From: an uncultured Desulfobacter sp.
GTDB taxonomy: Bacteria; Desulfobacterota; Desulfobacteria; Desulfobacterales; Desulfobacteraceae
NCBI GenBank assembly: GCA_963665095.1
Contig: OY762069.1
Span: forward strand, 5,280,001 to 5,344,000
Direction of reading: 5' to 3'
DNA: 64,000 nucleotides
Below, one piece after another: positions 2,199-60,707 of the stretch. A program made the position numbers and the translations under genes. The notes below the pieces were generated by a model that did no database searches, was not told where the DNA came from, and worked only from the letters and a program-made list of their open reading frames with translations. Positions within the stretch are counted from its first letter, which is position 1; every line of letters begins with the position of its first letter.

Positions 2199-2332
2199 CC
2201 TGCCATCCCATCTTTCAGGAAGTATATTTCTGGGAAACACTGTAGTATATGAGTTATAAAAACCTCTGAAAAGGGTGTTTTCACGTTGATTCGGTGGAAG
2301 TAAAAGCAAGAAATCAGGAAAAGAAAGAGCAG

Positions 2333-3205
2333 ATGGAAAACTTTAAAAATATGAGCCTGCGCGAATTACTGGCCAAGGCGTCACCCTTAAGATCCGGAGA
2401 TGTCCTGGCCGGCATTGCCGCGGCAAGTGAAGAAGAGCGTGCCAGAGCCCAGATATTCCTTGCTGAGGTGGCGCTGACAAGGTTCCTGGATGAACCGGTC
2501 ATCTCATATGAGACGGACGAGATCACCCGTCTTATTGTGGATGAACATGATTCAACTGCTTTTCGTAAGGTTCAGGGGTTTACTGTTGGTGAATTCAGAG
2601 ACTGGCTGCTGACGGATGTGGCCGATACTGACGTTCTCAGGGAATTGAGCCCGGGCCTGACACCGGAGATGGTTGCCGCTGTTTCAAAAATCATGCGGAC
2701 CCAGGACCTGATTCTGGTGGCGTCCAAGTGCCGGGTGGAAACCTGCTTCAGAAATACCATGGGGGCACCCCACAGTCTTGGCGTAAGACTTCAACCCAAC
2801 CATCCCACTGATGATCTATTCGGGATTGCGGCATCAATCCTGGACGGTATCTGTTACGGCTGTGGTGATGCCGTGATCGGGGTCAATCCGGCAACGGACA
2901 ATCTGGAAAACATTACCCGGCTGCTTTGGATGCTCGACGCGATCATTGAAAAATATGAGATACCCACCCAGTCCTGTGTGCTGACCCATGTCACGACCAC
3001 CATAGAGGCGATCAACGCAGGTGTGCCAGTGGATCTATGTTTTCAGTCCATTGCAGGTACCGAGGATGCCAACAAGGGCTTTGGCATTTCTCTTTCCCTG
3101 TTGCAGGAAGGATATGAGGCCGCACTCTCCTTGAACCGGGGAACCATCGGCGATAATGTGATGTATTTTGAGACAGGTCAGGGATGCGGTTCACCAGCCC
3201 TTTGA
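2333..3205 (+). pseudogene. eutB: Ethanolamine ammonia-lyase large subunit, 3'-truncated
   Basis: LLAKASPLRSGDVLAG, RLQPNHPTDD, GDAVIGVNPA, MYFETGQG, then immediate divergence and stop; about 290 aa versus about 450-460 aa typical; start codon uncertain. Confidence 0.88.
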
Positions 3206-3839
3206 CAAAAATACCCTTGCTGAAAAGTTGGAGAGCAAAGGCATCCAGTACTCTTTTTTAAACTCTTCGGTGGCCAGCCGGAGCGAATATCTCACCCGTC
3301 CAGACAAGGGCCGGGCTCTTGATCAAAATTCAAGGGAACAACTGGACGGGGAGAAGCAGGTCTGGGATATGGGTATGGTCGTCTGTGACGGGCTATCCAC
3401 CCGGGCTATCCACGAGAACTGTGCGGAGTTCATTATATTGTTTCGCAGCCTGGCACTTGTTGCAGAGTATTCCATTGCACCTGTGCAAATTGTGCAGAAC
3501 GGACGTGTTGCCATTGGTGATGAAATTTGTGAAAGCCTTAAAACAAAACTGGCAATAGTTCTCATTGGGGAACGGCCGGGATTAAGCTCCCCTGACTCTT
3601 TGGGCATCTATCTGACATATGCGCCCAGAGTCGGCACAACCGATGAGGCCAGAAACTGCATTTCAAATGTGCGTGAAAAAGGGTTGCCCATTCCACTTGC
3701 CGTTAAGAAACTGGCCTACCTGGTTGAAACCGCGTTTGTCGAAAAACGCTCGGGGGTCATGCTCAAGGACAAGATGGATGCAGGCTATCTTCCCTTTGGG
3801 ATTTTGCCAGAACTGGCCGGTGGGACCAGCAAATCATGA
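3179..3839 (+). pseudogene. eutC: Ethanolamine ammonia-lyase small subunit, 5'-truncated
   Basis: RDAVH, YLTRPDKGR, DGLS, GRVAIGDEI, LIGERPGLSSPDSLGIYLTY, RNCISNV; N-terminal region and a proper start/RBS are missing. Confidence 0.85.
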
Positions 3840-42988: not shown

Positions 42989-45769
42989 ATGTCATTATCG
43001 AGCTCACTTTATACAGGGACAAGTGGACTGAAAAACATGGGAAACGGTATGCAGGTAGTGGGCAACAATATTGCCAACACCAATACCGTGGGATTTAAAA
43101 GCGGGCGGTCCACCTTTTCCGATACCCTGTATGAAAATGTGGCCACCCAGGCTGGTACGGCCCAGATGGGCCGGGGCATGGCCGTGGGAAGTGTGACCAA
43201 TAATTTTGACCAGGGGTCGTTTGAATCCACCGGCAATACAACGGATCTGTCCATTGGCGGGGATGGCTTCTTCATCGTCCGCCAGAACGGTACAGAAAAT
43301 GATTATTATACAAGGGCCGGTAATTTTTATTTTGATGCGTCAGGCCAGCTGGTGAACCAGGAAGGCTACATTGTCCAGGGCTGGAATCTCGATTCTGAAA
43401 CCGGCGAAGATGTCGGGGCCATCGGCGACCTTGTCCTGGAGGCCTTTACCAGCGCACCCAAGGCCAGTACGGAAATTACCGCCATTACCAACCTGGATGC
43501 CGATGCCATCAGCCAGGCCGTTGTTCTGTCCAATGTATGGGACTCGAGTGCAGATACCTATATCAGCTCTTCAAGCTATGAGTATCAGACCACGGTCAGT
43601 GTGTATGACTCTTTGGGCAGCTCCCATGATATTACGATCTATTATGATAAGAAAAGCGGTACGGAATGGGAATATGTGGTGACCTGCAATCCGGAAGAGG
43701 ATAAGCGCAACCTGGTTCAGGAGACAAACTCTTTAGGGCTTCTGGCCAGGGGGAACATTACATTTTCTGAGAGTTCCGGCGATATTCTGGATCTGACCAT
43801 GGAAGAGTTCACCGGTCGCCTGGGCAATTTTACGGCCAATGGTGTAAACTCCCTGGATGACATTGAGTACAATATTATTGATTATGAATCCATGCCCAAT
43901 GACGGATACGGATTTGAGTTTGAATACGACGGCAGTTCATGGGATTTCGTGGATACCGACGGAGACAATGTCATTACCGCAGCCGATAAGCCGGATAGTT
44001 ACAACACGGCCACCATTATCTATTCCGATGCCACCACCATCCAGATTTCCCTTGACGGGGAAGATGAGGTGGATCTTGAGATCCAGTTGTCCCAGGCTGC
44101 GGTGGCAACCGATTCCCTTGGATTTGACATCAATGCTGAAGAAGACCTGCATATCCAGGGAATTGAAGGCTTAAGCTATTCCGGGGATACAGCCAATGAT
44201 AATACCAGTCTTGCCATCAATGACCCCGGCGTCATGACCCATGATGCCGAAGGCCTTGGCATTGTCTGGAATCCGACAACGGAAACCTGGTACTGGAGCA
44301 ATCCTGAAGTAGCCGATACCGACGGTACTTTGGTGGGAGATGTGACCTTTGACGGCGTGGACCAGACGGCAGCCACAGTTGTCAACGTAACCAGTGCCAC
44401 CGCTTTTGATATGGTGTCTGACGACGTCACCCTGATGGTAGACTACCGGACCAATGAGTGGGACTGGAACATGCCCATTAAAGAGGATGATTTTGCAGAT
44501 GAGGTGTTTGATTTTTCTCCTACCAATAATCCCACATTGAGTATTATTACTGTCGGTTCCCAAGGGGCTGTGGCCTCCCTTGACGCTGCGGGCAACCCCA
44601 CAACAATTACACTGGCATGGGACGGCGCCTCCTGGGTCCCCAGTGCCGGCGGTGGACAGACTCAGATTGTTATTGACGCAACCAATAGCGATGATTCGCA
44701 GGTGCAATTTTATCTCTGGGAGGCGGATGGTTCCGGCACCACGTCCGCAGGAGCCTCAGTAATCCGCTATACCTTTGCGTCGAGCCTGAGCACGGCAGGT
44801 GGAGACAGCCTCACTTTCTCCATTGATCCAACACCTCCCGAGGAGTATCCGGAAGCAGTTCTCTCCACATCCGGTGCCACTACATCCGGCATCGCCATTG
44901 ACTGGAACAACGATGCCACCATGGATATGCAGCTCACCCCCTCTGCCAACGGCACCACTACGCTGGCTGCCGGCCTTACCGCTGTCTTTGATATTGATCC
45001 CAATGTCCCGCCGGAAGAGTATCCCGATGCCACGCTGACCGGAGACCAGACCAAGGTGGTCATTGACCTGGATGATTCCGGCTCCGGGTCTGACGACGAC
45101 ATCGTCTTTACCTTTGAGGATGATCTTAAATACGGCACCAGTACCGATCCCTATGATGACAGAAGTGTCATACACTTTGATATTTTAGGCTCTACTGCAT
45201 GGACCAGCATGGCAGATTCAGATCTGACTACGGACGGTTATTTCAGCTTTATTGCCGATTTTCTGGGTGGCGAATACGGCAGTACGGAGATGGATATCAA
45301 GCTGGATCTTGGCTCCTCCTATGACGGGAACAACTGGATCAACGATTCTTTATCCACCACCCAGTACTCCAAATCCTCATCCACCACCTACCAGGATGCG
45401 GACGGGTATACGGCCGGTGATCTAGAAGGCGTTGATGTGGCCTCCGACGGTACCATGACCGGCTCTTACTCCAACGGGCAGCTCATCCCGCTGTTCCGGG
45501 TGGGGCTTGCCAAATTTTATAATAACTATGGGCTTTATGCCGAGGGCGGTAACCTGTTTTCAGAAACCAATGAAAGCGGTCAGGCCATCACCAACAAGCC
45601 GGGTGAAAACGGTCTTGGCACGATTTCTCCCAACTCCCTTGAGATGTCCAACGTGGATATTGCCGATCAGCTGGTAAAGATGATTGAGATCCAGAGGGGG
45701 TATCAGGGCAACTCCAAGACCATTACTACGGTGGATGAGATGTTACAGACGGTCATCAACATGAAGTAA
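42989..45769 (+). CDS. flgE: Flagellar hook protein, 926 aa with large central insertion
   Basis: GNNIANTNTVGFK, YTRAGNF, VYDSLGSSH, LEMSNVD, QRGYQGNSK. Confidence 0.93.
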   Translation: MSLSSSLYTGTSGLKNMGNGMQVVGNNIANTNTVGFKSGRSTFSDTLYENVATQAGTAQMGRGMAVGSVTNNFDQGSFESTGNTTDLSIGGDGFFIVRQNGTENDYYTRAGNFYFDASGQLVNQEGYIVQGWNLDSETGEDVGAIGDLVLEAFTSAPKASTEITAITNLDADAISQAVVLSNVWDSSADTYISSSSYEYQTTVSVYDSLGSSHDITIYYDKKSGTEWEYVVTCNPEEDKRNLVQETNSLGLLARGNITFSESSGDILDLTMEEFTGRLGNFTANGVNSLDDIEYNIIDYESMPNDGYGFEFEYDGSSWDFVDTDGDNVITAADKPDSYNTATIIYSDATTIQISLDGEDEVDLEIQLSQAAVATDSLGFDINAEEDLHIQGIEGLSYSGDTANDNTSLAINDPGVMTHDAEGLGIVWNPTTETWYWSNPEVADTDGTLVGDVTFDGVDQTAATVVNVTSATAFDMVSDDVTLMVDYRTNEWDWNMPIKEDDFADEVFDFSPTNNPTLSIITVGSQGAVASLDAAGNPTTITLAWDGASWVPSAGGGQTQIVIDATNSDDSQVQFYLWEADGSGTTSAGASVIRYTFASSLSTAGGDSLTFSIDPTPPEEYPEAVLSTSGATTSGIAIDWNNDATMDMQLTPSANGTTTLAAGLTAVFDIDPNVPPEEYPDATLTGDQTKVVIDLDDSGSGSDDDIVFTFEDDLKYGTSTDPYDDRSVIHFDILGSTAWTSMADSDLTTDGYFSFIADFLGGEYGSTEMDIKLDLGSSYDGNNWINDSLSTTQYSKSSSTTYQDADGYTAGDLEGVDVASDGTMTGSYSNGQLIPLFRVGLAKFYNNYGLYAEGGNLFSETNESGQAITNKPGENGLGTISPNSLEMSNVDIADQLVKMIEIQRGYQGNSKTITTVDEMLQTVINMK

Positions 45770-45983: not shown

Positions 45984-46080
45984 AATATTCTTGACGTAGT
46001 TCGTTGAATCATGACATTCGCAAAACAGCCCGGAAGGGGCTGTGGGGTCAATGAGCAAAATCGAGGCGTTTGGAGGTGTC

Positions 46081-46674
46081 ATGGCTGAGGATGATATGCT
46101 GGAAGAAATGGAGCGAGATGGATCCGGTAATTCTCCGGAACCGGGTGATGCAGCAGGTAAAAAAGGTTTCCTGGGCAAACTCATGTCGGGAAAGAAAAAG
46201 CTGATCATCATTATTCTGGCTGCTCTATTGTTTCTTGGCGGAACGGGAGCAGGGGTATATATCTTTTTTTTCGGTGGAGAAGAAGAACCTCCCCCTGAGC
46301 AGGCAACCGAAGAGACCGTCACTGAAGAGAGCATTCAGGCTGCTCTGGAAGAACAGAGCAAGGCTATTTTTGAGGATATTGTGATGTTGGAGCCCTTTGA
46401 GCAGATTGCCTTAAAAGCCGGGTCGTACATGCACTTTATCAGTCTGGGCATCAGTCTGGAAATGATGGATCCGGGATTCAGAAGGCAAGTGTATACCATG
46501 GAACCCAGGATCCGGAAAATTATTGAAAATCAGGTTCGGCAAATGAGTTGGGCAGACTTGAGATCCGCCAAAGGGAAACTTGAATTAAAATTTATGTTAT
46601 TAAGCCGGATAAACAACCTATTTCCCAAAGCAGCCATAAGACATATTTATTTTTCTAATTTTATAATGCAGTGA
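46081..46674 (+). CDS. fliL: Flagellar basal-body associated protein
   Basis: GGAGG RBS; KKKLIIII TM segment; GKLELK...RINN, IYFSNFIMQ; precedes fliM. Confidence 0.88.
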   Translation: MAEDDMLEEMERDGSGNSPEPGDAAGKKGFLGKLMSGKKKLIIIILAALLFLGGTGAGVYIFFFGGEEEPPPEQATEETVTEESIQAALEEQSKAIFEDIVMLEPFEQIALKAGSYMHFISLGISLEMMDPGFRRQVYTMEPRIRKIIENQVRQMSWADLRSAKGKLELKFMLLSRINNLFPKAAIRHIYFSNFIMQ

Positions 46675-46681
46675 TGGTGCC

Positions 46682-47680
46682 ATGAGTGAAATTCTATCCC
46701 AGGACGAGGTCGACAGTCTACTTGACGGACTGGATTCCGGAGAAGTAGAAACCGAGACTGATGTACCGGAGATTGTCGAAGAGCCGGTTGAAGGGGTTGT
46801 TGCCTATGATTTCACCAGTCAGGACAAGGTGGTCAGGGCAAGAATGCCCACCTTTGACGTGATTAATGAGCGCCTGTCCAGGGAAGTCCGGGCAACGTTG
46901 TCCTCTCTTTTGCAGACCAACGTGGATGTTTCAGCCAACCCCTTTGATACCCTTAAATTTTCCGAGTTTGTCCGAAGTCTGCCAGTGCCCACCAGTCTGC
47001 ACGTATTCAGGATGGAGCCCTTAAGGGGGCATGGGCTGGTGGTATTTGAAAGCCAGTTGGTCTACAACCTGATAGACACCTTTTTTGGTGGAGAAGCCCT
47101 GGGCAAGGCCCGGGTGGAAGGCCGGGAATTTACCACCATTGAAGAGGTAATGATAAAAAAAGCCGTGGTGGCAGTGCTTAAGAATATCGAGGCCTCCTGG
47201 GTTCCAATAGAGCCGGTCAAGGCATCATTGATCCGGTCGGAGATGAATCCGCAGTTCACGGCCATTGTTCTGCCCACAGATCTGGTTATCGTCACCCGGT
47301 TTGAGATCGAACTGGAGCAGTCTGCGGGCAACCTTGTAGTCTGCTATCCCTATTCCATGATTGAACCCATGCGCAACAAGCTCTCCTCCGGTGTCCAGGC
47401 TGAAATTGAAGAGATTGATTACAACTGGCGGCGGATGATTGAAGATGTGATTGTCAATTCCGATGTTGAGTTAAGAATTCTTCTGGGGAAAACCGAGATT
47501 ACCGGTGAAAAGCTTCTCTATATGCAGCCTGGGGATGTGATTCAGCTGGATAATGATGCATCTGAGCCATTGCCCTGTTTTATCGGCGGGCTGGTGAAAC
47601 TGACAGGTTTCATCGGTGTTCAAAGGGGATTTCAGGCATTTAAAATCAAAGATAAAATTATAACTGATTGTGAGGGATAG
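46682..47680 (+). CDS. fliM: Flagellar motor switch protein
   Basis: MSEILSQDEVDSLL, YDF, REFT.IE, EMNPQF. Confidence 0.96.
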   Translation: MSEILSQDEVDSLLDGLDSGEVETETDVPEIVEEPVEGVVAYDFTSQDKVVRARMPTFDVINERLSREVRATLSSLLQTNVDVSANPFDTLKFSEFVRSLPVPTSLHVFRMEPLRGHGLVVFESQLVYNLIDTFFGGEALGKARVEGREFTTIEEVMIKKAVVAVLKNIEASWVPIEPVKASLIRSEMNPQFTAIVLPTDLVIVTRFEIELEQSAGNLVVCYPYSMIEPMRNKLSSGVQAEIEEIDYNWRRMIEDVIVNSDVELRILLGKTEITGEKLLYMQPGDVIQLDNDASEPLPCFIGGLVKLTGFIGVQRGFQAFKIKDKIITDCEG

Positions 47681-51458: not shown

Positions 51459-53564
51459 ATGGCGGCAGAAAGCGTCGGCATTATGGCAGGATTAAGGAAG
51501 GAATCATCAGATATTCTGATGGTTTTTGCCTTTATCGGCATCCTCATGGCCATGATTCTGCCCCTTCATCCCATTATTCTGGATTTTTTTCTGGCGCTCA
51601 ATATCTCCCTGGCTGTTGTCGTACTGATCACCACCATGTATACCCAGAAACCCCTGGATTTCAGCATTTTCCCCTCGTTACTGCTTATGCTTACCCTGTT
51701 CAGGCTATCCCTGAATGTGGCCTCCACCCGGCTCATCCTTTTGCACGGCAGTGAAGGTCCCGAAGCTGCCGGGGCCATTATTATGTCCTTCGGGGCCTTT
51801 GTGGTGGGTGGTAATTATGTGGTGGGACTGATTATTTTTATCATCCTGGTGCTGATTAATTTCATGGTTATCACCAAAGGTGCGGGCCGTATTGCAGAGG
51901 TGGCAGCCCGGTTTACCCTGGATGCCATGCCCGGTAAGCAGATGGCCATTGATGCGGATCTTAACGCCGGCATGATTGATGAGGTGGAGGCCGGGGAACG
52001 AAGGTCTGCCATTGCACGGGAGTCTGAATTCCACGGGGCCATGGATGGTGCATCCAAGTTTGTTCGCGGTGATGCCATTGCCGGTATTGTCATCACCCTT
52101 ATTAATATCGGGGCCGGCTTTATCATCGGTGTGGTCCAGCAGGGCATGGAACTGCGTGAAGCGCTGGGCAATTACACCCTGCTGACCGTGGGGGACGGCC
52201 TGGTCTCCCAGATTCCGGCGCTGCTGATATCTGCTGCTGCCGGCCTTCTGGTCTCCCGCTCCGGCGCGGAAAGCAAGATGGGTCAGGCCTTTGCCCAGCA
52301 TCTGTTTTCCAGCGCCACACCGGTGCTGGTGGGCTCGGTGATTATTTTTCTCATGGGTATGATTCCAGGACTTCCCTCCATTCCGTTCATGACCTTGGGG
52401 CTGACCATGGGGACCCTTGCCTGGTACTTTTTGAGAAAAGAGGAAAAAGAGGTTGAGGAGAAGCAGATTCAGAAGCAGGCGGCGGCCCAGGCCCAGGAAG
52501 AAGCACCGGGCAAACCTGAGGATGTGGATCATCTGCTGCGTCTGGATACCATGGAGCTGGAAGTGGGATATGGGTTGATCCCTCTGGTGGACAAGCAGCA
52601 GGACGGAACCCTTCTGGGGCGCATCAAAGCTATCCGGCGGCAGTTTGCCACGGAGATGGGTATCATTGTTCCCCCCATTCATATCCGGGATAACCTGAAC
52701 CTGAGTCCGGCCCAGTACCGGCTGATGATCAAGGGGGTGGAGACAGCCGGTGCCGAGCTCATGGTCAACCATTATCTGGCCATGGATCCCGGCGGGGTGG
52801 CCCAGAAAATTGAAGGCATTGAAACCATTGAACCGGCTTTTAATCTGCCGGCACTCTGGATACCCATGTCCCGGGAAGAGGAAGCCAAGTTTTCCGGCTA
52901 TACCGTGGTGGATAACTCCACGGTGATTGCCACCCATTTGACGGAGATCATCAGAAGTAATGCCCACAACCTGCTCAGCCGCCAGGATGTCCAGCATCTT
53001 TTGGACAACCTGTCAAAATCCAGTCCCAAGGTTGTGGAGGAGCTGGTGCCCGGTCTTTTAAGTGTGGGTGCCGTTCAGAAAGTGTTACAGAATCTCTTGC
53101 GGGAGCGTATTTCCGTCCGCGATCTTTTAACCATTGTTGAAACCCTGGCTGATTTTGCGCCGGCAGGCAAAGATCCGGATCTGCTGACAGAGTATGTCCG
53201 CCAGCGTATTGCCAAAGGTATGCTGGCCCCGTTCCTGCAACCTGGAAAAAAATTGCAGGTCATTACCCTGGACCGGCGGCTGGAAGAGGTATTTACCAAG
53301 AATGTCAAACGTACGGAACACGGCACCTATCTGGCCCTGGAACCGGCCCTGGTCTCTGAATTTGTCGGGGCCGTGTCAAAACAGGTGGATAAGCTGATTA
53401 CCCTGAATACCCAGCCGGTGCTCATGACCTCTCCGGTTCTGCGCCGTCACGTCCGCCGGCTGCTGGAACCGACCCTGGCCACTGTAGCGGTTGTCTCCCA
53501 TGCAGAGATTGTGGATGATATTAACCTGCAGGCTGTGGGAAAAGTGAGTTTGAAGAATGAATAA
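51459..53564 (+). CDS. flhA: Flagellar export gate protein
   Basis: RIAEVAARFTLDAMPGKQMAIDADL, GAMDGASKFVRGDA. Confidence 0.98.
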   Translation: MAAESVGIMAGLRKESSDILMVFAFIGILMAMILPLHPIILDFFLALNISLAVVVLITTMYTQKPLDFSIFPSLLLMLTLFRLSLNVASTRLILLHGSEGPEAAGAIIMSFGAFVVGGNYVVGLIIFIILVLINFMVITKGAGRIAEVAARFTLDAMPGKQMAIDADLNAGMIDEVEAGERRSAIARESEFHGAMDGASKFVRGDAIAGIVITLINIGAGFIIGVVQQGMELREALGNYTLLTVGDGLVSQIPALLISAAAGLLVSRSGAESKMGQAFAQHLFSSATPVLVGSVIIFLMGMIPGLPSIPFMTLGLTMGTLAWYFLRKEEKEVEEKQIQKQAAAQAQEEAPGKPEDVDHLLRLDTMELEVGYGLIPLVDKQQDGTLLGRIKAIRRQFATEMGIIVPPIHIRDNLNLSPAQYRLMIKGVETAGAELMVNHYLAMDPGGVAQKIEGIETIEPAFNLPALWIPMSREEEAKFSGYTVVDNSTVIATHLTEIIRSNAHNLLSRQDVQHLLDNLSKSSPKVVEELVPGLLSVGAVQKVLQNLLRERISVRDLLTIVETLADFAPAGKDPDLLTEYVRQRIAKGMLAPFLQPGKKLQVITLDRRLEEVFTKNVKRTEHGTYLALEPALVSEFVGAVSKQVDKLITLNTQPVLMTSPVLRRHVRRLLEPTLATVAVVSHAEIVDDINLQAVGKVSLKNE

Positions 53565-54663
53565 AAAAATCTATCGCGCCCCCAATATCCAGAATGCCCT
53601 TGCCAGCATCAAGGAAGAGCTGGGACCGGATGCCATGATTCTTTCCACCCGCAAGGTGCCTAAATCACCCAAAGATCCCTATGGCAAGACCATGTTTGAG
53701 GTCGAAGCCGGTCTACCTTCAGAAGGTGAAAAGGAAACTCAAGATTCTGTCCCGTTGGCGCAGATGAAGGCCCTTCAGTCGGATGTAGCTGAAATTAAAG
53801 ATATTCTTTCCGTGGCCGGTTTTGGGTCTGGCATGCCGTCCATTCTGTGCAGCCATTTTGAATCCGTGGGTGTGCTGGCCTCACTGCTGCGCTGTGGCGT
53901 GAGCGAGCGTCTGGCGGCGGACCTGATTGACCGGGCCGCCACCGGACTGGAAGCCGGACTGGATACAGCCGGCCGGATGAATCAGCTGAAAAAAAAGGTG
54001 ATGAATCTGTGTCTGGACCGCTTGCGTACCCAGGATTTTTTTATCCGCAGCAACAACTCCGGCCTGCCCCAGGTGGCCGCCTTTGTGGGCCCCACAGGGG
54101 TTGGAAAAACCACCACCATTGCAAAGCTTTCCGCCTTCCTGACGTTTAACCGGAAAATGCGGGTGGGGTTGATTTCCGTGGATAACTACAGGATCGGGGC
54201 CTTTGAGCAGCTGAAAGCCTATGCCGGGATCATGGGGGTCCCATGCGTGCCTGCCTTTTCCCGTCAGGATCTGTCAATCGCCCTGGACCGGATGAGGTCC
54301 ATGGACATGGTGCTCATTGATACGGCCGGCCACAGCCATTATGATAAGTCAAAAATTGATGAAATCCTTGAACTGATCCGGAACGATTTCAAAATCAGCG
54401 TTCATTTAACCTTGAGTGTTACTTCTGAATTGATTAATATGAAAGAAGCGGCGTCGGCTTTTTCCGTTTTTAATCCAGATACCTATGTATTTACAAAAAT
54501 AGATGAAACCAAGCGATGCGGCAAAATTCTCGACCAGCTGGCAAGCTTTGACCTGCCGGTGTCACTGGTGACAAACGGTCAGAAAGTGCCCGAGGATTTG
54601 ATTCTTCCGGACAACCATGAGCTGTTGAAGATAATTCTAAAAAAAGACGCCAAAGGAGATTAG
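53557..54663 (+). CDS. flhF: SRP-family flagellar GTPase
   Basis: GPTGVGKTTTIAKL, DTAG, TKIDET, GQKVPEDL. Confidence 0.95.
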   Translation: MNKKIYRAPNIQNALASIKEELGPDAMILSTRKVPKSPKDPYGKTMFEVEAGLPSEGEKETQDSVPLAQMKALQSDVAEIKDILSVAGFGSGMPSILCSHFESVGVLASLLRCGVSERLAADLIDRAATGLEAGLDTAGRMNQLKKKVMNLCLDRLRTQDFFIRSNNSGLPQVAAFVGPTGVGKTTTIAKLSAFLTFNRKMRVGLISVDNYRIGAFEQLKAYAGIMGVPCVPAFSRQDLSIALDRMRSMDMVLIDTAGHSHYDKSKIDEILELIRNDFKISVHLTLSVTSELINMKEAASAFSVFNPDTYVFTKIDETKRCGKILDQLASFDLPVSLVTNGQKVPEDLILPDNHELLKIILKKDAKGD

Positions 54664-55557
54664 GTGGACCAGGCAAAAGGACTGCGGCAGATGGCCAGAA
54701 CAAACGCCACACAGCGACGGAAAAAGGGCCCGGCCCCGGGGTCGGACAGCTACCCTAAAGTCATTGCCGTCACCTCCGGCAAGGGCGGGGTAGGCAAAAC
54801 CAATATCGTGGGAAACCTGGCCGTTGCCATGACCCGGCTGGGTAAGCGGGTTGTGGTTATAGATGCGGATGTGGGGCTGGCAAATATTGATATTGTTTTC
54901 AACTTAAGACCCCGGTACAATATTCGGCATCTCATTTCCGGGGAAAAAACACTGGCGGAAGTGATGGTGACAACAACCCATGGTATCCGTATCCTACCCG
55001 GGGGGTCAGGATTTGCCGACCTGACCCAGATGGGTGAAGGGGAAAAACTCACGCTTTTATCTGAGTTCGAGACCCTTTCTGATACCACAGATATCATCCT
55101 TCTGGATACCGGGGCCGGTATTTCATCCAACGTGCTTTATTTTAATGCGTCGTCGGACCAGTGTCTGGTGGTGGCTACTACCGAGCCTACCTCGATCACC
55201 GATGCCTATGCACTGATGAAGGTGATGTCCCAGAATTACAGTCTGAAACATTTTAAACTGGTGGTGAATATGGTGGAGAGCCAGGCCGAAGCCAAAAAGG
55301 TGTATAGCTCCCTGAGCAACGCCCTGGATAAGTTTTTAAAGAATGTGGTGCTTGAATATGCCGGATTTGTTCCCTTTGATACGGCACTGCAGAAAGCTGT
55401 TCGAAACAGAAGTATCCTTTTGGATGAAGTGGACGGCGGCCCTGCCGCAGATGCCATGACAAGGCTTGCCCGGCATTTTGTCAATGACAGCCGGACAACC
55501 CAGAACCAGGGGAATTTAAGTTTTTTTATGAACAGGGTATTTGCAGCCGCCCAATAG
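54664..55557 (+). CDS. flhG: MinD/ParA-family flagellar number regulator (FlhG/FleN)
   Basis: DQA..LR, TSGKGGVGKT, EPTSITDAYA. Confidence 0.93.
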   Translation: MDQAKGLRQMARTNATQRRKKGPAPGSDSYPKVIAVTSGKGGVGKTNIVGNLAVAMTRLGKRVVVIDADVGLANIDIVFNLRPRYNIRHLISGEKTLAEVMVTTTHGIRILPGGSGFADLTQMGEGEKLTLLSEFETLSDTTDIILLDTGAGISSNVLYFNASSDQCLVVATTEPTSITDAYALMKVMSQNYSLKHFKLVVNMVESQAEAKKVYSSLSNALDKFLKNVVLEYAGFVPFDTALQKAVRNRSILLDEVDGGPAADAMTRLARHFVNDSRTTQNQGNLSFFMNRVFAAAQ

Positions 55558-55568
55558 GAAACCAATTC

Positions 55569-56315
55569 ATGGAATACCCGCAGATAAAAAGCCGTAAAGA
55601 ATGGGAAGCCTGGCGGCAGGAGTGTATCGTCAATTATGCTTATCTGGTCAAGTACATCGCCTCCCGCTTTGCCATGCGTCTGCCTTCCAGCGTGCTTTTT
55701 GATGAACTGATGTCGGCGGGGTCTCTCGGACTTATTGATGCCGTGGATAAATTTGATCCCGGCAAGCATGTCAGTCTTGAAACCTATGCCCGGTATCGAA
55801 TCAAGGGTGCCATCCTTGATGAACTGCGCAGCATGGATACCTATTCCCGGTCCATGCGCAAAAAAATTCAGGATATCTCCAAGGCGGCAAAGACCATTGA
55901 GGACGAGAAAGGCAGGCCTGCAGAGGAAGACGAGATCTGCAATGTTCTGGGTGTGGACCTGGAAACTTACCATAATATGCTCACTGATATCCATGGGGCT
56001 GCCGTCTTAAGTCTGGATGATTTCATTAAAACCAAAAAGAACGATGCCTATTCACAGACCCGGTTTCAATCCGGACTTAAAGGAGATGAAAACCCTGAAG
56101 ATGATTTCAATCGGGCGGAGCTGAAGTCGGTATTGGCAGATGCCATCAAAAAATTGACGGAAAAAGAGCAGATTGTCGTGTCACTTTACTATTATGATGA
56201 ACTCACCCTGAAAGAGATCGGCGAAGTTTTGTCTTTAACGGAATCCCGCATTTGCCAGATTCATACGGCGGTTCTTCTGAAATTGCGGACCCGGCTTGAA
56301 AGTTATGGAAGATAA
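55569..56315 (+). CDS. fliA: RNA polymerase sigma-28 factor
   Basis: GLIDAVDKFD, RIKGAILDELR, LYYYDELTLKEIGEVL.LTESRICQIH. Confidence 0.95.
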   Translation: MEYPQIKSRKEWEAWRQECIVNYAYLVKYIASRFAMRLPSSVLFDELMSAGSLGLIDAVDKFDPGKHVSLETYARYRIKGAILDELRSMDTYSRSMRKKIQDISKAAKTIEDEKGRPAEEDEICNVLGVDLETYHNMLTDIHGAAVLSLDDFIKTKKNDAYSQTRFQSGLKGDENPEDDFNRAELKSVLADAIKKLTEKEQIVVSLYYYDELTLKEIGEVLSLTESRICQIHTAVLLKLRTRLESYGR

Positions 56316-56409
56316 ATGGCTTGAGCTGGTCTGATATTTGCTTATCTTAATTACCAGTTATCAACAGCGTAACAGTTTGTATCAGTGATTTAAAACCATA
56401 GGGGGAGTC

Positions 56410-58143
56410 ATGTCAGACCCGGTTGCAGAAGAAGACGATCTAATATCCCAGGACGATATTGACAAACTGTTGGATATGGGGGACGACGATGCGGGCGAAC
56501 TCTCCCAGGACGATATTGACAGCCTTCTCAACGGGCCTTCTCCGGATGAGGATGCTGCCGGAGAACTGTCCCAGGATGACATCGACCGGATGATGGCGGG
56601 CAGTGCGCCGGAACCGGAGGCGGCAGCGGAAGAGGAGGACGCCGGGGAGCTCTCTCAGGACGACATAGACCGCATGATGAGCGGTAATACATTGGGCGGG
56701 GATGACGATCAGGAGGATGAAGACCTTGAACTCATTTCCCAGGATGATATTGACCGGCTCATGAATGATTCTTCAGATGAAGATCCTGATGATGACGATG
56801 ACGAGATGATTTCCCTGGAGGATATTCAGAGTGTGATGGTCGATGATGATAAAGGCGATAACACCCCTGACGCGGCTGAGTCAGACCCTGGTCCTGACAC
56901 CGGGACAATGGAAAGTGCCGATACCCCGGAAGATATTGGCGCATCCCCAGAGCAAATGGAAACAGAATCAGTGCAGGAAGAGCCAGAACAGGAAGAGCCA
57001 GAACAGACAGAGCCAGAACAGACAGATGATGGGACAGCCGGTTCTGAGGCCGAAGAAGTTCCTTATGATCCCTGGGATGAGCCTATTGATGAAGGGCAGG
57101 CCATGGATGTATCCGACTGCATGATTGCCCAGGAAACCATGGACGCTCTGATTGAGGCGGGCGTGATCAGCCCGGATACACCGGCAGAAGATGCCGGGGA
57201 TGCCGGGGGAGAGCCGGAACCGGCAGATTCTGGTGATGAAGATTTGTCTTCCAATGACGATCTTTTGGACGGTTTGGACCTGATGTCAGCAACAGATGAC
57301 GCTGAGGATGATGTCACCCAGGAAGATATAGACGCCCTGCTGCAGGGGGGCGATGAAGAGGATGATTTCCTGGATGAGGATGAGGATATCCTTATTTCCC
57401 AGGATGATATTGATACCCTGCTTATGGCTGCAGATCAGGAAGATGAGGATGTCCTCGGTGACCTTTCAGGCGAGGATGACGACACATCAGAACCCCGGGA
57501 TGCCCTTGATGATGAGCTGGAAGCTGAAGATTCGGATCAGGTCGTTTTGGAAGGGATTGAAGGCGCTGAAATTCCGGAAAGGGATGACCGGAAACCCAAA
57601 GGTCCGTCAGCCGGCAAGAGAATCAAGGCCCTGCTCAGTTCAAAAGTAATGCTGGCTGCGGCTTCCGTTCTTTTATTCATGGGAATATCCGTCCCCATAA
57701 GCTATTTTCTGTTTTTTTCCAGTGATCCGGTGCCGCTTCCTGAAAAACAGTCCGGATCCCTGACGGATATTGACCTTGGGCGGGACGTTCCTTTGGCCCG
57801 TTCCGGCCTTGAAGACACGGTGATGCCGGCCACCCGCCGGTCCGGAACCATTCTTTTACCCAATTTTATTATCCTTGCCTCGGATCAGAGTAAAACCATG
57901 ACCTATGTTTATGCAGATGTCTCTATTGATTATTCGGATCAGAGAGCCTATGATGAAATTAGTAATAATCTTGCTTTTTACCGGGATTTGATCTATGGGG
58001 CGATTCAGGCCCGGCTGGTGTCGGAAAAGAACAACGAAGTAACCAAGGCCGATCTGCTGTGGGACGTGGAAACCTCCCTGAAAAAAGTGCTGCCGCCCCA
58101 TTATTTTGACAGGATCACGTTTAAAACCTTTAAAGCCACTTAA
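56410..58143 (+). CDS. FliL-like membrane protein with long acidic tail carrying repeated SQDDID (FliM-N-like) motifs
   Basis: Six exact SQDDID plus TQEDID; TM about 57646-57717; C-terminal FliL-like region (LPNFII...YVYADVSI...RDLIY). Confidence 0.75.
   Translation: MSDPVAEEDDLISQDDIDKLLDMGDDDAGELSQDDIDSLLNGPSPDEDAAGELSQDDIDRMMAGSAPEPEAAAEEEDAGELSQDDIDRMMSGNTLGGDDDQEDEDLELISQDDIDRLMNDSSDEDPDDDDDEMISLEDIQSVMVDDDKGDNTPDAAESDPGPDTGTMESADTPEDIGASPEQMETESVQEEPEQEEPEQTEPEQTDDGTAGSEAEEVPYDPWDEPIDEGQAMDVSDCMIAQETMDALIEAGVISPDTPAEDAGDAGGEPEPADSGDEDLSSNDDLLDGLDLMSATDDAEDDVTQEDIDALLQGGDEEDDFLDEDEDILISQDDIDTLLMAADQEDEDVLGDLSGEDDDTSEPRDALDDELEAEDSDQVVLEGIEGAEIPERDDRKPKGPSAGKRIKALLSSKVMLAAASVLLFMGISVPISYFLFFSSDPVPLPEKQSGSLTDIDLGRDVPLARSGLEDTVMPATRRSGTILLPNFIILASDQSKTMTYVYADVSIDYSDQRAYDEISNNLAFYRDLIYGAIQARLVSEKNNEVTKADLLWDVETSLKKVLPPHYFDRITFKTFKAT
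56974..57024 (+). repeat. 15-bp in-frame tandem repeat, about 3.4 copies (QEEPE/QTEPE)
   Basis: CAGGAAGAGCCAGAA x2, CAGACAGAGCCAGAA, CAGACA. Confidence 0.85.
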
Positions 58144-58157
58144 TAAAGGTGATATTG

Positions 58158-58460
58158 ATGACCACTGTGCATGGACATAACCAGATTTTTCAGCAATCCG
58201 GTCTTGCCCAGGAGTTGAACCACCAGATCCATTCGCCCAAGCCGGATCCGAGTCAGGCTGCGGTTCAGCAGCAGGATCAGCAGGTGGTTGAAAACACAAC
58301 GGTCCAGGGCAGCGAAGATACGGTAGCCTTGAAACAGGAAAAAGAGAAAGAAAAAAAGAAGAAAGAACGCCAACTCAGAAAGGCTAAAGCCCGGAACCCT
58401 GAAAACGATCTGCCGTCGGATCCTGATGCTCCGGGCCGGCTTCTGGACACCACTGCATGA
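58158..58460 (+). CDS. Small hypothetical flagellar-cluster protein
   Basis: Gln/Lys-rich, C-terminal G.LLD motif; ATGA-coupled to the next gene. Confidence 0.6.
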   Translation: MTTVHGHNQIFQQSGLAQELNHQIHSPKPDPSQAAVQQQDQQVVENTTVQGSEDTVALKQEKEKEKKKKERQLRKAKARNPENDLPSDPDAPGRLLDTTA

Positions 58461-59056
58461 ATCTGCCTGTTCCCGTTGAATTTCTGGTTGTTCTCTCTTT
58501 AATCTTAGACCTGTTTCTTATTTTTTTGCTGTTTCTTTTTGTCCGCCGTGCCGGACGCCTGCAGGCTGCTGTCTGTCATGAGCAGGAACCGGACTTTGAA
58601 CAGATAGCCGACACGGTGCAAAAGGAAGCTCAAGTTGCTGCCAAAGAGGCACTTACCAAGGCCTCAGGAATGATTGAACCGGTATTGCAGGCGTCAAAAG
58701 AGGCGGCAGAGGAGTTTGAACGCCTGGTGAAGGAAAAACAGCAGCTGACCCGGAAACTGGACCACTCTCTTGATTCAAAGCTGATCAGTATTAACCTGCT
58801 TTTGTCCAGGGCCAACACGCTTTACAATCAGCTTGAAAATCAGCACAACAGCATTTTAAATACCCACCCTCAACGTTCGCCGTCCTTGTTTCACAAAGAG
58901 AAAGACGTCATTGATCAGCAGCAGCAGATAATAGACCTTTACTACCGAAAGGTGGATATTGATTCCATTGCAGAAAAGCTTTCCATTCCAAAAGGAGAGG
59001 TGCAGCTTGTCATTGACCTCAAGGAAAAGTTTATTGCAATGGAGAACGCCAGATGA
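58457..59056 (+). CDS. Membrane-anchored coiled-coil protein with C-terminal HTH-like (DUF2802-like) domain
   Basis: N-terminal TM; IAEKLSIPKGEVQLV. Confidence 0.65.
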   Translation: MNLPVPVEFLVVLSLILDLFLIFLLFLFVRRAGRLQAAVCHEQEPDFEQIADTVQKEAQVAAKEALTKASGMIEPVLQASKEAAEEFERLVKEKQQLTRKLDHSLDSKLISINLLLSRANTLYNQLENQHNSILNTHPQRSPSLFHKEKDVIDQQQQIIDLYYRKVDIDSIAEKLSIPKGEVQLVIDLKEKFIAMENAR

Positions 59057-60432
59057 TTCCGGACCTGTCGCTTTTCCCTGCGAAAAATATTTCCTCAGGG
59101 CCGCCTGGGGAGAATTTACCGGACCTGGACTTAAAACCCGGCCAGACGATCAATGCAAAAATCCTGGATGTTGTGCCCGGAACCCGGGCTCAATTGCTTA
59201 TCGGCAGCAGTACGGTTGAGGTGTCCACTCGGTTGCCTTTAACGCAGGAGATGGAGATTCCCCTGACCCTTGTGGGCACCCGGAACGGTGTTGTGCTGAA
59301 ACCTGCTTTGCCTGAAGCAACGTCTGCCCCGGGAAGTGATATCAGCCTTCAGATAGTTTCCGATAAAAAGGGGGCTGCTGTTCTGGCTGAGTTTGATATG
59401 ACGCCAGGCCGGACACTGACGGCAAAGGTACTTGATGTCGTACCCCGGAACCGTGTCCAGCTGGTTACAGGGGGAAAGCAGCTTACCGTCTCAACCCAGC
59501 TGCCCTTAAAGCCGGGTATGGAAATTTCTTTAACAGCGGCCCAAACCCGGGACGGCATCGTACTTAAACCATCCGCATCTCAGGCGTTGAGCCTGCCAGG
59601 GGATGGTGCCCAACCTCTTCCCGGGACTGAGAAAGCCTTCCAGACCACCCCTTCCTCCTTTATTTTCTCCAGGATTTTTCAGGGGCTGGCTGAGCTTGGC
59701 CAGACCAGAGAACCGGTACTGAACAAGATTCTCATGGGGCTTGCCTTGAAGTCAGGGCAGCGGGATGATCAATTCCTGCCAAGAATTCTGGAGGATGTCG
59801 GCCTGAATTTTGAAAAGAAACTGGCAGACGGTATTGAGGGCGGCAAAGGCGGAAAATCTGTAAACCCGTTAATGGAGCAACTGGCTGACAAAGATTTAAA
59901 AGCGGCGGTTCTCACCCTTCTCGGATCAGAGGGTCAGAGTGAAAAGGCAGAAACCTTAAAGCATATTATCCGGACCCTGGACAGTTTCGGACAGTTAAAT
60001 GCCAAAGCCGGGGAAGGGGGACAGACCCAGGATGGGAACCGTTTTCTGATTCCCTTCCCGGTCTGGACTGAAGAGGGGTTTGATTTCGGTCAACTGATGG
60101 TGGATGTGGGCAGCGGACAGTCAAAGGGGGCAGAAAATAAACTGATCAATATTTCCTTTTTATTGAATATGACGGCCCTTGGCCCCCTGCGGGCAGATTT
60201 TTCTATCCTGGATAAAACCCTGGCAGGTGGGTTTCTGCTGGAAGATCAGGAGACCTGCGACTACATTGACGGACTGATTCCTGAGCTGAGAAGCCGCCTG
60301 TCAGGTATTGGATACAAGGCAGGAACGATCAGCTGCCGGGTGGCTGAGCCTGACCAGATAACTCCTGCCAGCCTGATGATCTCTATGAAAGAGGCCTCTG
60401 CAGATGAGGAGAGCCTGGATATTGTGGTGTAG
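59053..60432 (+). CDS. Second FliK-like protein with duplicated N-terminal beta module
   Basis: Two ~58-aa repeats (PGQT..AK.LDVVP...STxLPL...ME...G.VLKP); C-domain L.MTALGPLRA; adjacent to FlhB-C-like gene. Confidence 0.65.
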   Translation: MIPDLSLFPAKNISSGPPGENLPDLDLKPGQTINAKILDVVPGTRAQLLIGSSTVEVSTRLPLTQEMEIPLTLVGTRNGVVLKPALPEATSAPGSDISLQIVSDKKGAAVLAEFDMTPGRTLTAKVLDVVPRNRVQLVTGGKQLTVSTQLPLKPGMEISLTAAQTRDGIVLKPSASQALSLPGDGAQPLPGTEKAFQTTPSSFIFSRIFQGLAELGQTREPVLNKILMGLALKSGQRDDQFLPRILEDVGLNFEKKLADGIEGGKGGKSVNPLMEQLADKDLKAAVLTLLGSEGQSEKAETLKHIIRTLDSFGQLNAKAGEGGQTQDGNRFLIPFPVWTEEGFDFGQLMVDVGSGQSKGAENKLINISFLLNMTALGPLRADFSILDKTLAGGFLLEDQETCDYIDGLIPELRSRLSGIGYKAGTISCRVAEPDQITPASLMISMKEASADEESLDIVV

Positions 60433-60434
60433 TT

Positions 60435-60707
60435 GTGGCGCGGGATAAAAACAGAAAAAAAGCCGTTGCCTTAAGGTATGACCGGCTTAAAGACGATGCG
60501 CCAAAGGTTATGGCCAAGGGGCAGGGCAAGGTGGCTGAAAATATTATTGCGCTGGCTCTGGCCCATGGCGTTCCAATCAAAGATGATCCGGATCTGGTGG
60601 AGGTGCTGGCATCTCTTGAAATTAACCAGGAGATCCCTGCAGAAATTTATGTGGCAGTGGCCGAGCTTCTGGCCTTTGTCTATGCCGCCAATGCGGATAA
60701 AACCTGA
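60435..60707 (+). CDS. FlhB C-terminal-like protein (FlhX / EscU-YscU-HrcU family)
   Basis: AVALRYD...APKVMAKG.G.VAE, EIP.E.Y.AVAELLAFVY. Confidence 0.9.
   Translation: MARDKNRKKAVALRYDRLKDDAPKVMAKGQGKVAENIIALALAHGVPIKDDPDLVEVLASLEINQEIPAEIYVAVAELLAFVYAANADKT

Follow-up and report, generated by a model that had tools for sequence, protein, structure and literature searches.

We analysed a window of 64,000 nt from an uncultured Desulfobacter sp. (assembly GCA_963665095.1, contig OY762069.1, positions 5,280,001 to 5,344,000). It holds a flagellar cluster that includes fliK, flgD, flgE, fliL, fliM, fliN, fliO and export genes, the latter assigned from their translations, followed by flhF (53557-54663), flhG (54664-55557) and fliA (55569-56315, + strand). 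The first gene 3′ of fliA, its conserved upstream neighbour, and two genes downstream of flhG is fliL2 (56410-58143, + strand), which encodes a 577-amino-acid FliL paralogue and has a ribosome-binding-site-like AGGGGGAG (56400-56407) just 5′ of its ATG. The canonical fliL (46042-46674, + strand; PF03748 E 1.5e-13) lies immediately 5′ of fliM (46682-47680, + strand). Translation at 46682 gives a FliM with the N-terminus MSEILSQDEVDSLL and an intact docking peptide, LSQDEVDSLL, bearing out the ILSQDEVDSLL start reported in a preliminary description of this DNA. Contigs of three public runs cover fliL2; those of X1, possibly the source sample itself, and X4 carry the gene without differences, and that of X6 differs within it by 3 substitutions and an in-frame deletion of 9 nt.

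Immediately 3′ of fliL2 (58149-60707), the window encodes a 103-amino-acid hypothetical protein, a DUF6115-like membrane protein, a second FliK-like protein and a FlhB-C-terminal-like protein, in an order kept in most loci. Sigma-54-like sites occur just 5′ of fliK, fliL and flgF (39801, 45968 and 61286), among nine matches in the window, a total not above chance. The same scan found no such site from fliL to the FlhB-like gene, which would make fliL2 part of one long early operon. Elsewhere in the window, the hook protein FlgE (42989-45769) has 926 amino acids and a very large central insertion, and a match to the ethanolamine ammonia-lyase large subunit (2294-3839) covers profile positions 4-281 of 435 and overlaps the small-subunit gene. 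The large-subunit gene may be truncated.

The tail of FliL2 carries seven clear and two degenerate copies of a [ILV][ST]Q[DE]DIDxL[LM] peptide, all on the + strand, and a re-check of the sequence placed all nine where the preliminary description had put them. ISQDDIDKLL (repeat 1, 56443-56472, residues 12-21, predicted short helix) and LSQDDIDSLL (repeat 2, 56500-56529, residues 31-40) are followed by two copies of LSQDDIDRMM (repeat 3, 56566-56595, residues 53-62; repeat 4, 56650-56679, residues 81-90) and by ISQDDIDRLM (repeat 5, 56734-56763, residues 109-118); repeats 3-5 make up the zone in which copy number varies across the repeat-bearing FliL2 family. Next come a degenerate copy without the Gln, ISLEDIQSVM (56809-56838, residues 134-143), and a conserved block (57067-57159, residues 220-250) that ends in the other degenerate copy, IAQETMDALI (57124-57153). 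Repeat 6 is VTQEDIDALL (57313-57342, residues 302-311), and repeat 7, ISQDDIDTLL (57394-57423, residues 329-338), is the best conserved copy and the one included in the complex prediction below. A second conserved short motif, QVVLE (57538-57552, + strand, residues 377-381), follows the array. As V[IV]L[EA] after the last repeat, it occurs in 35 of 41 repeat-bearing FliL2 tails versus 4 of 38 repeat-less ones.

Asp and Glu make up 37% of the tail, and codons differ synonymously among the repeat copies. When the 405-amino-acid tail was shuffled 100,000 times, 423 shuffles contained one match to a loose pattern and none contained two; against the seven observed, the repeats are thus not a product of chance. 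A search of 27,683 six-frame ORFs from the genome found the strict pattern only in FliL2 (seven matches), FliM (one) and one kinase-like protein (one). AlphaFold2, run with a 90-row alignment, modelled all nine copies as short helices (pLDDT about 55-70) between low-confidence linkers, and the tail is predicted to be disordered. A hydrophobic-S/T-x-x-acid-hydrophobic start, as in these peptides, is a generic helix cap, a point against the CheY reading given below.

Beyond the tail lie a single transmembrane helix (57646-57717, + strand, residues 413-436; one long helix at 404-437 in the AlphaFold2 model) and a FliL-type periplasmic domain (57844-58140, + strand, residues 479-577, beta-beta-alpha-alpha-alpha-beta). 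A basic cluster lies N-terminal to the membrane segment, which is predicted to run N-in, C-out. The N-terminus of FliL2 is acidic and has no signal-peptide-like stretch, and Lys and Arg are more numerous before than after the hydrophobic segment in 121 of 121 proteins (the query and 120 listed homologues). Because of this bias the tail is predicted to be cytoplasmic; the periplasmic tail that the preliminary description had named as counter-evidence is not what these proteins point to. The cytoplasmic N-terminus would span ~410 residues, in place of the short one that characterizes FliL.

The preliminary description had also called the C-terminus FliL-like, a call that holds for the predicted fold and the family profile but falls short at the Pfam cut-off, since PF03748 scores only 15.1 and 17 bits on this part of FliL2 against a gathering threshold of 24.6. 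Across 28 family members, PF03748 reached E 0.1 or better in 21 (best 1.6e-7). The modelled domain (479-576) is confident, with pLDDT mostly 80-96, and Foldseek ranked FliL chains at all of positions 1-10 and SPFH proteins after them. The best chains were FliL of H. pylori (7sgn, TM by target 0.78) and of C. jejuni (9hmf, 0.82), and Vibrio FliL (6ahq and 6ahp) was also ranked. A profile of the 28 family domains recovered 7sgn (E 4.5e-7) and 9hmf (1.5e-5) by sequence and matched canonical fliL genes across the phylum. As modelled, the C-terminal domain is FliL, weakly so for the single sequence and clearly at the family and fold level. A third FliL-domain protein of this genome (G000:C1:6566623-6567510, 295 amino acids, PF03748 E 2.3e-12) has a lipoprotein-like N-terminus and an extra N-terminal domain and is encoded among LPS-related genes, far from the flagellar cluster.

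FliL2 shares with canonical FliL (7sgn, 9hmf and 6ahq) the single transmembrane helix, the SPFH-like periplasmic fold and a place in the flagellar gene cluster, at about 15% identity to the solved chains. Unlike canonical FliL, it has a 400-amino-acid, predicted cytoplasmic tail with docking-type repeats, and its gene follows fliA, whereas canonical fliL precedes fliM. A precedent for a second FliL working in the same motor is MotF of S. meliloti, in the passages cited a paralogue of FliL from a single flagellar system, where it contacts FliL, MotA and MotB (PMC9541039). In those passages MotF lies mostly in the periplasm and acts on the plug of MotB, and no repeat tail is mentioned, in contrast to FliL2 (PMC9541039).

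A homology search returned 289 homologues, the best named among the matches listed being Desulfobacter and Desulfobacula proteins. All 121 proteins inspected (the query and 120 listed of the 289) carry 1-9 strict copies, and in a second set of 133 new representatives, 99 of the 101 with at least 250 amino acids carry 1-18. Conservation reaches 0.78 in the motif columns and 0.78 in the folded domain but 0.41 in the spacers, the pattern of kept motifs and variable spacers that the preliminary description had predicted for orthologues. In an order-level survey of 251 genomes (fliM in 143, none in 108), at least three DNA-pattern repeat matches were present in 29 of the 143 fliM-positive genomes versus 0 of the 108 fliM-negative ones, counts in which related genomes are not independent. 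One of the 29, G255, has its matches scattered over three contigs. In a genome without a fliM match, two identical motif matches lie 372 bases apart (G220:C35:9939-10336). Gene order is conserved as flhF-flhG-fliA-fliL2: fliL2 is directly 3′ of fliA in 18 of 20 loci, the other two being cut by contig ends, and in 36 of a further 40, where one has an intervening gene and three are cut.

We looked beyond the order in a phylum search, from which 20 matches with longer frames were picked and 17 kept, leaving out one canonical fliL, one gene outside a flagellar cluster and one from the order itself. At these 17 other-lineage loci, cheY stands directly between fliA and fliL2 in 12, a gene intervenes in 1 and no cheY is seen in 4; the repeat is absent from all 17. 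Across the phylum, second FliLs encoded after fliA are widespread. When fliM matches of the survey were split by score, the higher class had a second FliL-type match away from fliM in 71 of 77 genomes, and in the other class (65 genomes) the profile found only the fliM-adjacent fliL, plus one weak 41-amino-acid match. The two FliM classes of the order also differ in their peptide, LSQxEVDSLL occurring with a second FliL after fliA and LSQxEIDALL without one seen, and they may represent two flagellar systems with separate origins.

A quick tree built from just the FliL domain (134 rows by 105 columns; a short search with SH-aLRT support only) combined 41 repeat-bearing and 40 repeat-less second FliLs with 53 canonical FliLs, its members collected with a profile built from repeat-bearing proteins. 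A branch (SH-aLRT 99) set all 41 repeat-bearing proteins apart from every repeat-less one, and within this clade copy number ranges from 1 to 21, with repeat loss in 0 of the 41 sampled members. On this evidence the second FliL is old, and the repeat tail, judged from these sequences, appears to have been gained once and then kept, with 1-21 copies. The second FliL paralogue that the preliminary description proposed is much older than its repeats, and many orthologue tails lack them. Since 40 second FliLs have none, the repeats are not needed for the first role of FliL2. Several repeat-less tails (L172, L174, L182, L183, L176, L180, L110 and L107) carry other short acidic motifs, some in tandem, of the types F[ST]G[DN]EL, WGG and VELD, the first resembling a Gln-less cousin of the repeat. 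At L098 (G358) a repeat-rich helical protein is encoded between cheY and fliL2, and at L091 (G331) a FliL-domain protein with a long acidic tail lies outside any flagellar cluster.

The repeats resemble a known class of peptide: EIDAL motifs have been noted in FliM, FliN and FliY, according to the section cited (PMC6946799), and the FliM/FliY peptide shares with the repeats the spacing of Leu/Ile, Ser, Gln, Ile, Asp, Leu and Leu. FliM residues L6, Q8, I11, D12 and L14/L15 are CheY contacts in the table cited (PMC3774744, Table 3), and these positions (6, 8, 11, 12, 14 and 15) coincide with conserved positions of the repeat. Its Gln is near-invariant, at 96% where the pattern permitted other letters. 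A motor-type CheY, most like those of V. cholerae and enteric bacteria, is encoded at G000:C1:5155274-5155648, directly after cheX and about 180 kb from fliL2, and its groove residues A89, Y105, V107, K118 and K121 are invariant in 20 of 20 CheYs of repeat-bearing genomes. A complex prediction of CheY with FliL2 residues 319-352 gave weak support, with a score of 0.32 where the best of three controls had 0.00; this is the lowest passing value, and by the calibration of the tool so low a pass is wrong more frequently than it is right, barring a pairing that was likely beforehand. Of 157 solved complexes, 116 attained the passing mark, as did 2 of 215 mismatches, and passes at 0.60 or under comprised 18 of the 157 and both mismatches. 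Runs agreed in at least 87% of contacts, with partner pLDDT of at least 56; the score may reflect similarity to the solved complexes of CheY with FliM and CheZ peptides. cheY adjoins fliL2 in none of the repeat-bearing loci inspected, and the gene-order and motif evidence thus come from different lineages, because the cheY-adjacent fliL2 genes are repeat-less.

On a modest balance of probability, we read FliL2 from its sequence as a membrane-anchored, likely stator-side, multivalent catcher of CheY-P that tunes switching. Its FliL domain would place it within or next to the ring that FliL forms around the stators, like MotF and canonical FliL, which contacts MotA and MotB, a motor localization that we infer from fold and gene cluster by analogy. 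Each repeat would fold into a short helix and occupy the alpha4-beta5-alpha5 groove of the motor-type CheY, preferring CheY-P, and the flexible 400-residue tail would form a local reservoir, capturing CheY-P and exchanging it with FliM. Such exchange would shift the sensitivity or timing of the switch, with repeat copy number setting the capacity. Sequence does not decide between feeding and buffering of the switch; we favour a reservoir that hands CheY-P over, since a CheY groove occupied by a repeat has no room for the FliM peptide.

The preliminary description had left two candidate partners, CheY-P and FlhG, and position 5 of the repeat separates them in part. Among 562 repeats collected with this position left free, it is Asp in 81% and Glu in 9%, whereas the FliM peptides have Glu in 69 of 69 (70 loci, one unreadable), so that FlhG becomes the less likely of the two. 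CheZ tails, for which 23 of 44 loci gave a pattern-matching tail and 21 had no match, show Asp in 48%, Asn in 22%, Glu in 17% and Gly in 13% (n=23), and the repeats resemble them more than FliM at this position. In the part of the source cited, some polar flagellates have an FlhG that binds this FliM peptide (10.1101/2022.04.21.489128; PMC12826062), the EIDAL peptide is both required and sufficient for binding of FlhG in Shewanella, and the Vibrio FlhG ATPase is stimulated by FliM (both 10.1101/2022.04.21.489128). With the conserved flhF-flhG-fliA-fliL2 order, this would allow FliL2 to be a membrane anchor or sink for FlhG, controlling how many flagella form and where, in the manner of the FliM/FliY EIDAL peptide or the polar hub HubP. 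We nevertheless judge that quite unlikely: according to the same part of the source, Vibrio FliM E9A disturbs flagellar number and leaves switching intact (10.1101/2022.04.21.489128), yet the Glu needed there occurs in only those 9% of repeats, and flhG adjoins repeat-less fliL2 genes too. Asp may still stand in for Glu. Position 5 leans towards CheY over FlhG as partner, as far as sequence goes, although the Asp-for-Glu change could weaken CheY binding too; Salmonella E10G is reported, in the passage cited, to cut CheY action (10.1101/2022.04.21.489128).

The repeats might instead dock to another component (the C-ring, the stator, an export component, another receiver domain or each other), making the tail a motor-assembly scaffold whose likeness to FliM is borrowed or convergent. 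The other short acidic-hydrophobic motifs of repeat-less orthologues, some repeated, suggest a tail that freely evolves docking motifs; the V[IV]L[EA] motif is conserved and has no known partner, and the genome is rich in receiver domains. We think this unlikely, as the near-invariant Gln and the Asp stand exactly at CheY-contact positions and, FliL2 aside, the strict motif scarcely occurs outside FliM in this genome. Very unlikely, in our estimate, is a tail that supplies its docking peptide in trans to CheX and so switches CheY-P off, as CheZ and FliY do in cis. Here no CheZ was found with Pfam and a lineage profile, cheX directly precedes cheY, and CheZ tails share the taste for Asp, but CheZ matches occur in repeat-bearing families f66 (7 of 7), f47 (3 of 3) and f26 (4 of 4), FliL2 has no phosphatase domain, and nothing points to contact with CheX. 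Among families of the order, CheZ presence does not co-vary with the repeat array. Several families also encode strongly diverged CheZ-like proteins with a docking-type C-terminal peptide (L209-L215). We regard it as highly improbable that the repeats bind nothing and are a side effect of tandem duplication within a disordered acidic spacer. Copy number does range between 1 and 21, and certain long members are built of nearly identical units in tandem, but the motifs are conserved and the spacers are not, codons vary synonymously between copies, and none of the sampled members has lost the repeat.

A CheY-P catcher of this kind would differ from known docking peptides in valency and place. FliM and FliY carry one copy per rotor subunit, with a conserved Glu where the repeats have Asp; proteins of the FliL2 type carry up to 21, in a membrane protein on the predicted non-rotating side. 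CheZ tails of the same phylum match the repeats well, with Asp at position 5 and a variable position 1, but the CheZ docking peptide is single and C-terminal, whereas the repeats are internal, repeated and membrane-anchored. Pfam and NCBIfam gave no phosphatase domain in FliL2, and its tail was modelled without a folded domain.

To our knowledge, CheY meets the motor only on the rotor (FliM, FliN and FliY), and FliL is regarded as a partner of the stator in the periplasm. A FliL with CheY-docking peptides, if real, would connect the stator ring to chemotaxis signalling. We found no description of a FliL combined with CheY-docking repeats, nor of a conserved second FliL after fliA across the phylum, in the open-access full-text literature. 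The parts are known, and the combination appears new: a real, conserved FliL variant with a strong lead to putative CheY binding. The repeat family also flags the conserved second FliL after fliA across the whole phylum. FliM-N has been described, in the passages cited, as a tether that raises switch sensitivity, with a role for tethering proposed in the steep motor response (PMC7957414); the natural series of 1 to 21 copies offers a test of tethering and valency in that response. A further-reaching picture, which we hold as doubtful, is a second platform for CheY-P docking, built on the side of the motor that does not rotate, where a FliL ring member with dozens of FliM-like peptides around the C-ring might capture and potentiate CheY-P before it reaches the rotor and repeat number (1 to 21) might be an evolvable dial for switch sensitivity.

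Other single-pass or polar membrane proteins offer a comparison for FliL2. The HubP/FimV polar landmark is defined by a LysM domain and a FimV C-terminal domain; Pfam found neither in FliL2, whose C-terminal domain is FliL, and FliL2 has no Pfam or NCBIfam match to ZomB or HubP/FimV. In the passages cited, ZomB affects switching (10.1101/2021.07.06.451403), HubP recruits FlhG and FlhF (PMC12826062), and an EIDAL-type motif is mentioned for neither ZomB nor HubP/FimV. Some FliL2 homologues are automatically named 'pilus assembly protein FimV' in JGI records, a label that likely reflects acidic low complexity.
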